A stretch of DNA of 62,367 bases, the filler included, from Globobulimina sp. (lineage: Eukaryota), in assembly GCA_003354225.1 (NCBI GenBank). It is 32 parts of 32 records of this genome, joined end to end, with 100 filler letters (N's around TTAATTAATTAA, not from the genome) between each part and the next. Parts side by side here need not be neighbours in the genome. Positions count along the whole stretch, not along the records: positions 17,578 to 19,430 come from PIVH01011218.1; 31 more parts are not named here. The stretch is one strand, 5' to 3'. Below are positions 17,478 to 62,367 of the stretch, piece by piece; the stretch's first letter is position 1, and the number at the start of each line of letters is the position of its first letter. The translations under genes and the position numbers were made by a program. The notes under the pieces were generated by a model. It was not told the DNA's origin. It searched no databases and worked only from the letters and a program-made list of their open reading frames with translations.

Positions 17478-18053
17478 NNNNNNNNNNNNNNNNNNNNNNN
17501 NNNNNNNNNNNNNNNNNNNNNTTAATTAATTAANNNNNNNNNNNNNNNNNNNNNNNNNNNNNNNNNNNNNNNNNNNNGAATGGTTACAAGTTGTTGAAAA
17601 TCGACCACATAAATGTAGTCTTTTTGATGATATAAATCGAAATATTTGGGAAAGCGAAATATAAGCGGAATATAAGAGCAAGCCCTTTGGTTAAGCATCA
17701 AAACTCCAGCTACAAACAAAAACACGTTTATTTGGAATCTCTATTGCATCAAATTTGGTTTTTTGGCTCTCTCTCATAATTGGGAGTTAATTTTTAATTT
17801 TTAAAAGTAAGAGAAATAAGATTGATAGAGGAATAAACAAATAGCGAAAATATACTGCTGTATTTTATCCAGTATTTAGTTGAGATCCAAATGAAAACTA
17901 AAGTTTGATTTTAAAATCAAAAATACTATTTTTCTGTTTCAAAATAACCATTTTGTGGTTTAAAAACTGTGATATAGAAATCAAATGGCAGAAATGCAGC
18001 ATAAGGTACCTACGTTTCTGAAAGGTTTGTTGACCTGTTTATTTTTCAGTACC

Positions 18054-18168
18054 CCAGAGAAAACTACTGACACACAATAATGTAGTCTGTCTAGTGTTTG
18101 TATTTGGCGCCTTCCAGAGAAAACTACTGACACACGTGTAGTCGTCTAGTGTTTGTTTTTGGCGCCTT
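18054..18168 (+). repeat. Two tandem 60/55-nt structured direct repeats
   Basis: CCAGAGAAAACTACTGACACAC..TGTAGTC(T)GTCTAGTGTTTGTWTTTGGCGCCTT at 18054-18113 and 18114-18168. Confidence 0.9.
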
Positions 18169-18445
18169 AGCTTTAGGCGCCAAACTTTCTCTTGTTATTT
18201 GGGAAACCAAAAACCATCTGGCCGCCAGCTGCCCATCTGTGAACACAAAGGTTAAAGAAAGGATACCTTTCCTTTCCCTTGCCATTTGAGCCTGTTCTTT
18301 AGGCCAAATGGTTGTATGGGAGCTCAACGTCTCCCTCTAACATACATACAACAGCAAATTATCTTGCAGTCACAAAACGGACAGTATAAACTTTTGGTTT
18401 ATTACTGTATTTAATATAGCTTACAGCTACTTTATAGAAGCTTAT

Positions 18446-18591
18446 ATCTGGGAGCCGACACATACGTCATTAGCCCCATGATAGAAGAGTCATTATTATG
18501 AACTCGATGAAGCTTATCTCTGGGAGCCGACACATACGTCATTAGCCCCATGAGCTCTGGGAGCCGGCACATACGCCATTAGCCCCACGAG
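18446..18591 (+). repeat. Three 37-nt hairpin repeats with compensatory substitutions
   Basis: Copies at 18446-18482, 18518-18554 and 18555-18591. Consensus MTCTGGGAGCCGRCACATACGYCATTAGCCCCAYGAK. Confidence 0.92.
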
Positions 18592-18806
18592 ATTGTTTGC
18601 AACATAGTCATATTGACTACATTCTTATGTGACTGAAAAGTTGGGTTTATTTAGCCCATGGGCATAGTTGAATTAATTAACCTCTGGGAGGAAACAGAGA
18701 TTACTATATAAAATTTGAATAAAATAAAAGGGAGTCGCAAGGACCTCTATGTAGTATGCAACTGTAAATGGAAAATAATAGAAATGTCTCTGGTCATATT
18801 AGCGCT

Positions 18807-18844
18807 GCACCTGAAGATGCCCTTCTGGGCGAAACCGGTCGTGC
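18807..18844 (+). ncRNA. Minimal type I hammerhead ribozyme
   Basis: Stem I GCAC/GTGC; core CTGAAGA(T); stem II GCCC-TTCT-GGGC; GAAAC; palindromic minimal stem III ACCGGT; GTC cleavage triplet ending at 18840. Confidence 0.88.
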
Positions 18845-19530
18845 TTTAAATCCTACGATTGGTGCTAATTTTTCTGGAGACTAGACTATTAATTAGTGCA
18901 CTTTGTAAGAGACACCCAAAATTGAGTTGGGTTTTGTGAAACATCAAGCTTATAATTTTGGTTAAAAACCATAGACGATGGAATGTAGAGGGTCAAGTTT
19001 AATCAGTTGGTCCCCTGCCGTGCCCTGGCACTACATATTTACATTGACTTTTTGCGGGAGTGATCATTTGTCACCTGCGGAGGCTTTTAGCCAAAGTAGA
19101 TGGATGGTTTGACTAGGCTCGCTGTACCTTGTGTTTGTTGATTATGCCACATGAGAAATTAATGAGCATTTCTCTTCTTGTTCGCTTTGATGCAGAAAAG
19201 TAACCAGGGCAAAAATAAGGAGCATTTTATTGCTAAAAATTGAATTGATTGGTAAAATTTGCACAACGAAAAATAAGCTACATAAATGGGTTTTCGAAAA
19301 TGTTTTCTGTCGATTCATAAAATAGGACAAATTAGTCCAAGAAGAAAAATAGTACTAAATGTATTTTTGAATTGGTTTTCTTGTGATTTATAAAATCGGC
19401 CAAAATGGGCAAAGGAGAAAAAATCATTTTNNNNNNNNNNNNNNNNNNNNNNNNNNNNNNNNNNNNNNNNNNNNTTAATTAATTAANNNNNNNNNNNNNN
19501 NNNNNNNNNNNNNNNNNNNNNNNNNNNNNN

Positions 19531-23436: not shown

Positions 23437-25288
23437 TTTACGAAAACAGTGTGGGATTTGGAAAAAATGTCGGCCCAAAACATAGAAAAATACCAAAATG
23501 ATTTAGATATTAAGTTCAAATCAATGAAAATGGTGACTGATAACGTTAAATCAATGGAGGTAAAGCCAATTAAGTACATATCGACAATCATGAAACACAC
23601 AAAAAAGTTAATAATAAATTCAGCGCAATATCACTTTGGAAAAATAACAAAGCGCGTTGGCCAAGTCTTGGTATTAAATGATGAAATAAAAAAAGTGATT
23701 GATGACACTCGTAAATATCGAAAAAAATACAAATCTGTCCTTAAATATGTGCAAAAAATCAAAAAAAAATGGTATCAAAAGCGGCGAAACGTCACTAGAA
23801 AATGTCCGAAATCATTTATTATTGACAAAATTGGTCATAATCGATGGCATATATTTCAAACTTGGAAAAAAATGGACAGATTAAAAAGCCGTAAAGTCCG
23901 AAGAATTCATCGTAAATTAAAGAAAAAACAAGATCTGAAAACGATAAATGAATATAAATCCAAATCATGGTATGAATTGGTTAAGAAATTAGATGGAAAT
24001 AATAATAAAAATAATGATCGATCAATTGGTAAATTAATTAAATTGTCAGTTGCTATTAAAAAATTGACAAAAGATCAAGATGCAAATTTAAAATATGATG
24101 ATTTTATTTACGATGATAAGCAAAAAGCGAATGAAATATCAAAATTTATGAACACAATCGGTCATAAATCCAATCCATTGCATGACAAAAAAGTAAAAAG
24201 ATCGAGAAAAAGGGCCCGTGAACTCGACGCGCCGTATGATTTCCAACCAAAATTATGGTCAGATTTGGATGAAAACGACCTTACAAACAATCAAAAGAAT
24301 GAAATTGCTGAATGGAAATTGGCATCATCTAAATTGGTTGAACCGTTTACGAGATCCGAGCTGCATTTTGCATTAAAAAAAGGTAATCCAAATAAAGCAT
24401 TTCATGGCGATATACATTTGCTATTATTGGTACATGCAGAGAAGCAAATTGCTGATATGTTATTAGTGGTTTTTGATTGGTGGAAGGATAATGGAATAAT
24501 CACAAATAATATGAATGAGCGCCTCATGAATCCACTCATTAAAGGTGGTAAAGACAAGAGATTGATTGGTTCCCTCCGACCCCTCGAATACGGAGTTATT
24601 ATATTCAAAGTATACACCATTATGGTATTTAACCGTATTGCTACCTACGCTGAAAAATATAAATTATTGACGGTGCATCAGTTTGCATCAAAAATAGCGT
24701 CCGGTTCGGAGGATTGTTTGGTTGATATGATAACGGACATTGATGAGATGGTTTGTAAAGGATTTCCAACAGTATTAACGTCAAACGATTCAAGCAGCGC
24801 TTATAATGCCATGCATCCGACGATAATTGAAGACAAAATGAGACATCATTGTGGTTTTAACGATGCTGCGATTACTATGTTTCAATCGTTTACAAGCAAC
24901 GTATGGTCGAAATGCAAAGTAAATAATCAAATATCCGATACATTTAAGCCGCGAAATTCATTATTTTCTCAAGGCTTTATACCCGCGGGATTCTCGTGGT
25001 GTGTTTATATAAATCCTGGCGTCATGCATTTGGATCAAAATTATATATTATATGATACAAATAATGGCAACCAATTAGCAAAGATCCAGCCAAAGGTATT
25101 AATGGATGACGTTAATTTTTATATTAAATTACATAAAAACAGTAATCGGTTAAAGTTGAATGAGGATTTTGATGAATATAATAAAGTTATAATGTATGAT
25201 AAAATATCGATAAATAAGTTTATTAAATTGCAGCCAAATAGAAAGTATATGCAAATATTATCGAAAATGTACCCGATGATGCAAAAAG
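23437..25288 (+). mobile_element. Highly divergent non-LTR-type reverse transcriptase ORF, partial at both ends
   Basis: RT subdomains in the correct order: PFTRSEL..AL...NKA, PLIKGGKD...LRPL, HQF, NDSSSAYN, SQG...VYIN, LMDD. No stops in 617 codons. Confidence 0.8.
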
Positions 25289-45002: not shown

Positions 45003-45729
45003 AAAACCTTGCCAATCACAAAAGAAGTGTTTAGAAGTTTAAGCCTAAAAAGCAATTGTTCTTGCGTGAGATTGGAACCACACATATTATTTATTTGTTT
45101 CTCGCGATATACATGGATTTCTTTGGAGTAATTGACTTTTTGCTTCCTGTGAAATGGTTGGTGGTTAGAACGATTTTACGGTTTTCCAGTTTTTGCAGAC
45201 TGGCTTGCTTTTAACAGTTTAATTTAACAGATCGAGCTGGTCATTTTTTAACGCCGTATATATACGGCATTAGTATGCATATACAACACGTACAATCCAA
45301 ACGAAAATTAACACACATTTGTACTCAACCATTGCGTCTCCTATGATGATCTAGTGACTTTCGACTCAATACCTGTATTGATCACATACTCAGAAACATC
45401 ACAAAACTATTGATAACAACTGTAACATAATCAATACAGATATTTTAAATAACGTTGTAATGTAACAACTGTAATGTTACATAAATAACGTTGTAATCAA
45501 TACAGATATTTGTGGTTGGTTTGATTGTGTGTTTTTGTGTTTGGTTGGCTGGTCTTTGCGTGATGTGATGTGATGATTGGGATTTGAACCCAAATCTTCT
45601 TCAATAAGATGCTTTTTTAAGCTGTCATCACTTTAAATAAATTATATGAATTAAGCGACTTCGATCGTCGCTCATATTAGATAAATAAAACGTGTCATTT
45701 TCACACGTTTGAGCCATGAATATTTGCAT

Positions 45730-60416: not shown

Positions 60417-60516
60417 NNNNNNNNNNNNNNNNNNNNNNNNNNNNNNNNNNNNNNNNNNNNTTAATTAATTAANNNNNNNNNNNNNNNNNNNNNNNNNNNN
60501 NNNNNNNNNNNNNNNN

Positions 60517-62336
60517 GAATCCTTAGGTTTCTTCAACCAATCCGGACCATGCCACCAGAAAGATAAATCTGTTAATTCTTTCATATCCATACCTCTGCTA
60601 GGTAAATCAGCCAGATTATCAGTTGTAGCAACATACCGAAATGTGCATCGTCCCTTGTTGGCTTTAATGTGTTGTAACCGTCGTTCAACAAACACCGATA
60701 AAGACTTTTTGCTAGTCAGCCAATGTAAGACGGCCTTTGAGTCCGTCCAAAGTGTCACTGCCGAAATAGGTAAATGGAGGTGTTTCTCGACAAACTTGAG
60801 ACAGTTAATGCCAATGAACATTCCCAATAATTCCAGTCTGGGAATACTGACGTCCTTTTGAGGGGCTAATCTCGTTTTGGAAAAAACCAAATCCATTCGC
60901 ACTTCCTCCGGAGTTGTTTGACGTAAGTAAATCACCATGGCATAACTTTTCCCGGAAGCATCACAGAAACACAGTAATTCATACTCTGGTTTCCCTTTTT
61001 GAAAACCAATATAACGTGGAATTTGATGGTCTGGAATAGCCTGCAAACACACAGCTATTTCTTTCCACTTTGCCGTTAGTTCCTCGTCAAATTTCATATC
61101 CCAATCCATTTGTCGTGCCCACAATTCCTGCACGAACAGTTTAGCCTTCACAAGTACAGGCGAGAAATATCCCAATGGATCATAAATGGAGGGAATGGCT
61201 TTGAATACTTGACGTTTAGTGTTGGCACACATCATTTGTGCTGCGTCAGGACCCGGAATAGTTAACAGATCATCTGTTATATCCCATTTGATTCCTAACA
61301 CCTTTGTGGATTTAGTGACGATTTTGTCATCATCGGGAATATTCTTCATAACAGTTTCAGATGATGATGCCCATTCACGCAAATTCATAGAAGCTTTGGC
61401 AAAAATTTCCTTAGCCTCTTTTCGAAATTGTATTGCATCTTCTTCAGAATCAACTCCAGTGACCAGATTGTCTACATACAAATCCATCATAATTTGCCTA
61501 GCAATGTCACTGTCTATCTGACTTAAATGATACAAAATTGTTTGAGCCAGCAAAGTTGGGCTGGATCTCGTTCCGAATGGCATCATAATATATCTGTACT
61601 TTTGAATATTCCGTTCCACATGCTTTTTTGTGATATCTTTCAACCACAAGAAACGAATGGCATCTCTATCATCTTCGGTCAAACGAATCTGCAGAAAAGC
61701 TCCTTCTATATCTGCAATTAATGGAATTTTATGTAAACGAAACCGCATCAACATTCCACAGAGATCCTCCAACAATATGGGTCCTCTATACAAACAATCA
61801 TTCAGACTATTGTTCGTTTTCTTAGTTTTAGCTGATGCATCGAATACAATACGAAGTTTCGTTGTACTTTTAGATGGAGTTATGACCGGATGATGAGGTA
61901 TGTAATGTTTATGGGGACCTTCCTTTGTGTCCTCCAACACCTTTTCAATAATCCCATTCTTTTCTTGTTCCGCAAACTTAGCAGTATATTTTTGGAACAA
62001 TTCCGGATCTTTTTCAAATCTTGGCAGAAGAGACCGCAAGCGTCCTACTGACAAGGCATAATTATCCGGTAAATTAGGATTTTCAACATCTTTCCAAGGC
62101 CACGATACTTCATATCGGCCATCGACAAATTTAACCGTTTTGTTGAAATGCTCAATAGCTTTGTCGTCATCTGAATCATGAGGAGATTCTTTGATACCAA
62201 TAGTTTCCAAATCCCAAAACTGAGTGAGATTGGGTTCATACAACAAAGATTTATCTGGGGAAGTGAGCATTGATACTTCCGTCTGCAAAGCAACAGGCTC
62301 CAGACAAGTGGACATGACAAACATGCTTGGTTCCAC
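60517..62336 (-). mobile_element. BEL/Pao LTR retrotransposon pol (RT + RNase H), partial
   Basis: FWDLE.IGI, YIPHHPV, KLRIVFDAS, SLNDCL..GP, ADIEGAFLQI, YVDN, YDPLG, FCDAS, IPRLEL, WTDS, NLAD..SRG, WWHGP. Confidence 0.96.
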
Positions 62337-62367
62337 CTTTTTACATGCATTTTCATTTTCAACTCTT

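Follow-up and report, generated by a model that had tools for sequence, protein, structure and literature searches.

A candidate minimal type I hammerhead ribozyme with features of Penelope-like elements in a short, non-coding repeat of the Globobulimina sp. assembly

A minimal type I hammerhead motif with a palindromic helix III and a helix I prolonged by its flanks is present at 18807-18844 (+) of the analysed window, within a multi-copy repeat. This is probably a genuine hammerhead, predicted to cleave, carried by a short, non-coding, non-autonomous repeat that is derived from Penelope-like elements (PLEs) or parasitic on them; the repeat would be a decayed or 5′-truncated PLE fragment, or a non-autonomous element borrowing PLE machinery. 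The window (the whole stretch of DNA analysed, 62,367 bases) consists of 32 separate, size-ordered contigs of 1851-1853 bases, divided by spacers (N44-TTAATTAATTAA-N44). These contigs are unlinked, so features on different pieces are not neighbours. The hammerhead-bearing contig occupies 17578-19430 (1853 bases), and the remaining window is unlinked DNA from the same assembly.

The 38 bases of the motif read GCAC-CTGAAGA-T-GCCC-TTCT-GGGC-GAAA-CCGG-T-C-GTGC and follow the type I core order throughout (C3 U4 G5 A6 N7 G8 A9...G12 A13 A14...H17). The 5′ strand of helix I (GCAC/GUGC, 4 bp; 18807-10 with 18841-44) is followed by the core CUGAAGA (C3-A9; 18811-17), an extra U (18818), helix II (GCCC/GGGC, 4 bp; 18819-22 with 18827-30) closed by a UUCU loop (18823-26), GAAA (18831-34, with G12-A14 at 18831-33), the helix III palindrome ACCGGU (18834-39) and C17 (18840), which places the predicted cut between 18840 and 18841. 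Helices I and II (4 + 4 bp before extension) flank the core, and the strand ends exit via helix I. A first-pass annotation of this DNA had read the site in the same way, and its bases are exactly as written there, with the core and both 4-bp stems present. The stem I of 4 bp that it gave stands as far as these core pairs are concerned, but the flanks add 9 + 8 + 6 further pairs.

The descriptor used for searching comprised CUGANGA, 0-1 inserted base, a helix II of at least 4 bp, GAAA, an A...U helix III of 4-12 nt, H17 and a helix I of at least 4 bp; the inserted base was optional, and neither G10.1-C11.1 nor a palindrome was demanded. At all four stringencies applied, 18807-18844 was the sole match in the window. 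A first-order Markov control of the same composition as the window (64.4 Mb) gave one match with Watson-Crick pairs only and 10 with G-U pairs, corresponding to a chance expectation of 0.002-0.02 descriptor matches per window. Accidental occurrence of the motif in one window is unlikely, but scanning very many windows would still yield chance examples, and the motif taken alone is suggestive, extra evidence being needed beyond it when many windows are scanned.

As arguments against chance, Cervera and De la Pena (2014, PMC4209133) point to four features of the minimal hammerheads of PLEs that lay outside their own descriptor: grouping into consensus families that show covariation, an additional base separating 9 from 10.1, pairing of G10.1 with C11.1, and palindromic 15.2-16.2 and loop 3. 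The last three are all found at the site, where the extra U lies between A9 and G10.1, G10.1 pairs with C11.1, and 15.2-16.2/loop 3 is palindromic. According to that paper, helix I of PLE minimal hammerheads measures 4-5 bp and helix II is preceded at its 5′ end by an unpaired base; cleavage in vitro is low, and could be detected only when the constructs were dimers or trimers or when helix III had been lengthened. Most genomic minimal hammerheads are reported there to be solitary, not inside full elements, and a large helix III is ascribed to the PLE hammerheads of protists and fungi.

Rfam gave no hammerhead match to the site at the gathering score, nor at E<=10 on 251 nt around the motif. 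Forced onto 58 nt, Hammerhead_HH9 (RF02275) aligned exactly to 18807-18844, in the register of the first-pass annotation, and scored 10.4 bits, the gathering score being 52; the Rfam cmsearch that had been proposed as a check thus leaves the site below the gathering score. This negative result carries little weight because the same models missed 14 comparable motifs: the classical hammerhead families of clan CL00010 matched none of 14 environmental loci whose minimal hammerheads are as good as this one or better, and the sole hammerhead-named Rfam match was a weak one to RAGATH-1-hammerhead (20.6 bits, in locus L077). A covariance model (R1) was trained on 20 metagenome minimal hammerheads, none from the candidate's family. 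On the window it gave the site 35.5 bits (rough E ~6e-9), part of which is by construction, since the core pattern and the invariant columns of R1 were taken from the candidate itself, leaving only the helices as an independent test; the next best site scored 13.8 bits. Among 100 prokaryotic loci with the same fixed core, one training member reached 51.3 bits; the highest score among the other 99 was 33.4 bits, and their median about 18-19 bits. Three loci in prokaryote genome contigs (L145, L137 and L227) score 30-33 bits with R1 and may be chance matches or real small hammerheads.

Three collections were searched with a core-only pattern (CUGANGA, N, G, 3+3-8+3 N, C, GAAACCGGUC). None of the seven matches in viral contigs had both helices of at least 4 bp. 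Prokaryote genome contigs gave at least 120 matches, with one such case among the 120 matches listed, and metagenome contigs at least 122 matches in at least 121 loci, with 17 among the matches listed (14 of 80 when these are counted by distinct string). The sole prokaryote case among the matches listed (L138; helix I 6 bp, helix II 5 bp) lies on a 3.3-kb contig assigned to a MAG with the label Gammaproteobacteria; the contig may be eukaryotic DNA that binning placed in a bacterial MAG, and the hammerhead family of L138 also occurs in metagenomes (locus L093). Among the matches listed in metagenome Ga0194135 (L009-L128), another minimal hammerhead family (CUGAUGA-U-GGUU-UUC-AACC-GAAACCGGUC) is represented by dozens of copies, with a helix I of only 2-3 bp and, in some copies, a frame at A9-U-G10.1 that is open for ~70 codons. 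A similar hammerhead from another metagenome (L108) has a compensated helix II pair, unrelated flanks and no extended helix I; it was set aside as covariation evidence because it had been picked by pattern and by its stems. A pattern for the exact family of the candidate found no match in metagenome contigs or genome contigs.

The motif belongs to a multi-copy dispersed repeat (18260..19130), delimited by summed contig depth in a run (X1, of DNA or RNA) in which contigs were aligned at 80% likeness; two further runs, X2 and X3, gave no aligned contigs. This depth, which is not copy number and is taken only as showing that the repeat is multi-copy, is 4.8 at the left end of the contig and 10-110 across ~18260-19130, with a peak of 109.7 in bin 18818-18879, on the motif. 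Likeness stops before 18773 or 18783 in some copies, a contig of depth 30 departs at 18892, and none of the variant letters listed falls within 18804-18905. The motif occupies the best-kept, most repeated core of the repeat. Direct subrepeats are present upstream of the hammerhead, as three copies of 37/72 nt (18437..18591, +), also found in L076 (below), and two of 55-60 nt (18054-18168). The other 31 contigs of the window contain no further copy of the repeat, and no tRNA-like SINE head was found on contig 17578-19430.

Another copy (L076) forms the end of an 18.8-kb record of the metagenome collection (PJEL010002097.1), of which 470 b were compared; it aligns to 18519-18941 with 88.1% identity over 437 columns. 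The first-pass annotation had let its reading stand or fall partly with conservation of the core in other genomic copies, and L076 keeps the motif intact, the sole change in the 38 nt being one base absent from loop 2. Over 18560-18941, 53 columns differ between L076 and the contig, and five of these lie within the segment 18776-18891, which folds as an extended hairpin (see below). Four are in internal loops (18797 and 18884), loop 2 (18825) and a bulge (18848), while the fifth changes C-G to U-G at 18803 and keeps the pair; in X1, U prevails at this position (depth 62 of 76). By a rough estimate from these two copies (contig and L076), such a pair-sparing pattern would have a ~2% chance if the five differences were random. 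Because its variant letters occur in X1, L076 is regarded as a further copy from a genome of the same kind and not as an independent lineage.

Constrained folds extend helix I into a hairpin of ~116 nt (18776..18891, +), the ends of which coincide with the limits of the part common to most copies. The extension consists of a 9-bp helix stacked directly on helix I (18798-18806 with 18861-18869), an 8-bp helix (18786-18793 with 18874-18881) and a 6-bp helix (18776-18781 with 18886-18891), with a 16-nt bulge containing a small hairpin on the 3′ strand (18845-18860). When constrained to the hammerhead, 123 nt fold at -36.6 kcal/mol, compared with -22.7 +/- 2.9 for 1000 flank shuffles (z -4.74), none of which was as stable; the count of cross-pairs in this control discriminates weakly, 60 of the 1000 shuffles reaching 23 pairs.

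The minimum-energy fold of the monomer is a misfold (-13.3 kcal/mol, with the hammerhead fold lacking helix III at -9.9 kcal/mol), and in the 123-nt context the hammerhead-compatible fold lies 3.6 kcal/mol above a minimum in which the cut-site strand pairs with 18861-70 instead. Helix III of the monomer (A15.1-U16.1) is too short to be predicted, and in the minimum-energy dimer from RNAcofold it becomes a 6-bp ACCGGU/ACCGGU helix within a double hammerhead (-30.1 vs 2 x -13.3 kcal/mol). This dimer, together with the three hallmarks above, agrees with the first-pass assignment of the site to the PLE form with palindromic helix III. On these models, any activity would depend on a second copy or on some helper, in line with the published behaviour of the class. 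Dimer cleavage by such hammerhead variants was reportedly described by Lunse et al. in 2017.

A second hammerhead copy had been expected in tandem. Neither the descriptor nor R1 detected one on the contig, whether along the 1229 nt before the motif or along the 586 nt after it, no tandem period on the contig contains the motif, and the X1 contigs have only ‘skip’ joints, with no ‘goes back’ joint among those listed, so the expected arrangement found no support in either place. A partner may possibly lie ~3 kb off, as in a pLTR-ORF-pLTR arrangement, outside the reach of an 1853-base contig. Contig 17578-19430 contains no ORF of at least 80 aa, and Pfam gave no match, and no RT/GIY-YIG remnant, in its 13 short + strand frames or in the L076 peptide; a pseudo-LTR position within an element encoding an RT (+ GIY-YIG) is therefore not seen on the contig. 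As no protein is encoded there, the PLE link rests on motif class and geometry. On the other contigs, no PLE-type RT or GIY-YIG was found among the 38 of 85 ORFs of at least 100 aa that were scanned against Pfam.

An AUG frame formed by A9, the extra U and G10.1 (18817..18849, +) closes after 10 codons (TAA, 18847-49). In L076 the corresponding frame is open for 54 codons, to the end of the record, and the 54-aa peptide has no longer relatives among the sequences found. Just before 18941, where the likeness to L076 stops, lies a weak AC-rich hairpin (ACACCCAAAA...UUGGGUUUUG; 18912..18937, +) whose stability does not exceed that of shuffled sequences; by analogy, and speculatively, it may be the counterpart of the site where PLE reverse transcription starts (‘tail’).

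The minimal type I class sits at the PLE pLTR/ORF junction, and the same class is assigned here. If the repeat is PLE-related as proposed, its + strand would be transcribed and the ~116-nt module would fold as a long, interrupted helix I bearing helix II. Helix III of a single copy would be too short, and the ACCGGU segments of two copies would pair to give a 6-bp helix III and two active sites. Each copy would then be cut after C18840, possibly aided by the protein of the element, as in the Anolis PLE.

Three other readings were weighed against this one. The site could be a chance look-alike, in which the conserved hairpin of the repeat has another role or none and the core bases are accidental. 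The rate of loose-descriptor matches expected by chance, multiplied over the many windows scanned, the lack of a significant Rfam match, a minimum-energy fold of the region that is not a hammerhead and the three prokaryotic core matches at 30-33 bits with R1 are all consistent with such an accident. It would also have to account for three class hallmarks that the descriptor did not demand, a central position of the motif in the best-kept, most repeated ~115 nt, flanks that prolong helix I in exact register and a score above all 99 core-matched controls, and we regard it as improbable. A monomer of a non-LTR retrozyme, that is a tandem repeat of 150-450 bp with type I hammerheads giving a small circular RNA, as in many animals, would share with the site a type I hammerhead, a short palindromic helix III and low-GC, non-coding repeated DNA. 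Retrozyme and PLE readings overlap in part, because a 2026 preprint derives animal retrozymes from PLE pLTRs. With one hammerhead in 1853 bases (and none in the 1229 nt before it or the 586 nt after it), no head-to-tail units of 150-450 bp, no tandem period and no back-joint listed in X1, and with retrozyme hammerheads described as canonical, with loop 1-loop 2 contacts (PMC7229834), a retrozyme is quite improbable.

Highly improbable is the remaining reading, in which the segment would be the 3′ module of an endonuclease-lacking, telomere-attaching PLE (Athena/Coprina/Terminon type), with the hammerhead beside reverse-complement telomere repeats. Such EN- PLEs are reported outside animals (PMC8557442), the assembly looks protist-like and a single ACACCC lies 72 nt past the cut site, yet the motif is not followed by a telomere-like repeat tract; no RT ORF lies upstream, and the PLE hammerheads of fungi and protists, as described in PMC4209133, have a large helix III.

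The owner of the contig bears on what a minimal hammerhead in a PLE-related repeat would mean. Gene-bearing contigs of the window carry long, intron-free ORFs at ~32% GC, encoding a TLC ATP/ADP transporter, an actin-family protein, RhoGEF, SH2 and an Ariadne E3 ligase. The best relatives of the TLC-type transporter (313-1803, -; 497 aa, intron-free) are eukaryote or metagenome proteins (62-78% identity), and its sole named relative is bacterial (27%). Those of the Ariadne ligase are EukProt or metagenome proteins in the same identity range, the nearest named ones coming from chlorarachniophytes and oomycetes (45-50% identity over ~46% of the query). Judged by these sequences, the assembly looks like that of a little-sampled protist. 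A BEL/Pao-type retroelement frame (Peptidase_A17 + RVT_1; 60516-62366, -) is open across an entire contig. BEL/Pao is, to our knowledge, a group restricted to animals and, if so, this frame is odd in a protist assembly. Another contig is filled by a 617-aa frame with RT-like motifs and no Pfam match (23437-25287, +), for which no PDB relative was found. It was considered as a PLE and rejected in favour of a divergent LINE-type retrotransposon, because its relatives, the longest of them 1783 aa, combine an AP-endonuclease domain with RVT_1 and RNase H. The sole Rfam match in the window at the gathering score is a 63-nt tRNA (45569-45631, -; 43.6 bits).

It appears doubtful that the hammerhead-bearing contig belongs to the intron-poor, SAR-like protist owning most of the assembly and not to admixed animal DNA; the BEL/Pao element and the animal-type form of the hammerhead are pointers to the latter as a possible origin. 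If the contig is protist-owned, an animal-type, dimer-dependent minimal hammerhead would be present in a protist, widening the host range, and a hairpin module of ~116 nt, complete in itself and built on a long helix I, would be spreading as a non-autonomous repeat without a nearby PLE ORF. PLE minimal hammerheads are a kind familiar since 2014, with thousands of them in some animal genomes, so that a further copy is unremarkable. The long helix I made by the flanks is an added detail, and could suit folding tests of weak dimer-type ribozymes.

Compared with known systems, the site has the core, helix order and register of the Rfam CL00010 hammerheads, with Hammerhead_HH9 as best local match, but at 10.4 bits against 52 it is not a member by the Rfam score. 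Animal non-LTR retrozymes (Cervera and de la Pena 2020, PMC7229834) are likewise type I and located in low-GC, non-coding repeats, and some act as dimers; they are described as short tandem arrays of canonical hammerheads, whereas one minimal motif per 1.85 kb is found here. The Anolis Poseidon PLE ‘PAc’ (Frangieh et al. 2024, PMC11167929) has its start codon where helix II begins, and its ribozyme, which cleaved only once protein was added, cuts 26 nt into the frame; an AC-rich stem-loop at +111-118 is where its reverse transcription is initiated and where genomic insertions stop. Here an AUG is likewise found at the helix II start, with the predicted cut at +24, and an AC-rich hairpin at +96 to +121, with likeness to L076 ending at +125. 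These parallels are weak, because the frame stops after 10 codons with no ORF following, the L076 peptide is without relatives, the hairpin folds no better than shuffles, and other copies already diverge from 18892. The closest resemblance is to the metazoan PLE minimal hammerheads (PMC4209133). Their families have a helix II of 6-8 bp, compared with 4 bp here, and their hosts are animals, while this assembly, though perhaps not this contig, looks protist-like; the +23 flanking pairs of helix I and the lack of a PLE ORF in reach also set the present repeat apart from the PLEs of that paper. Common to both are the type I order, a short helix I, the unpaired base, G10.1-C11.1, a tiny palindromic helix III implying dimers, and occurrence mostly as single, dispersed motifs.
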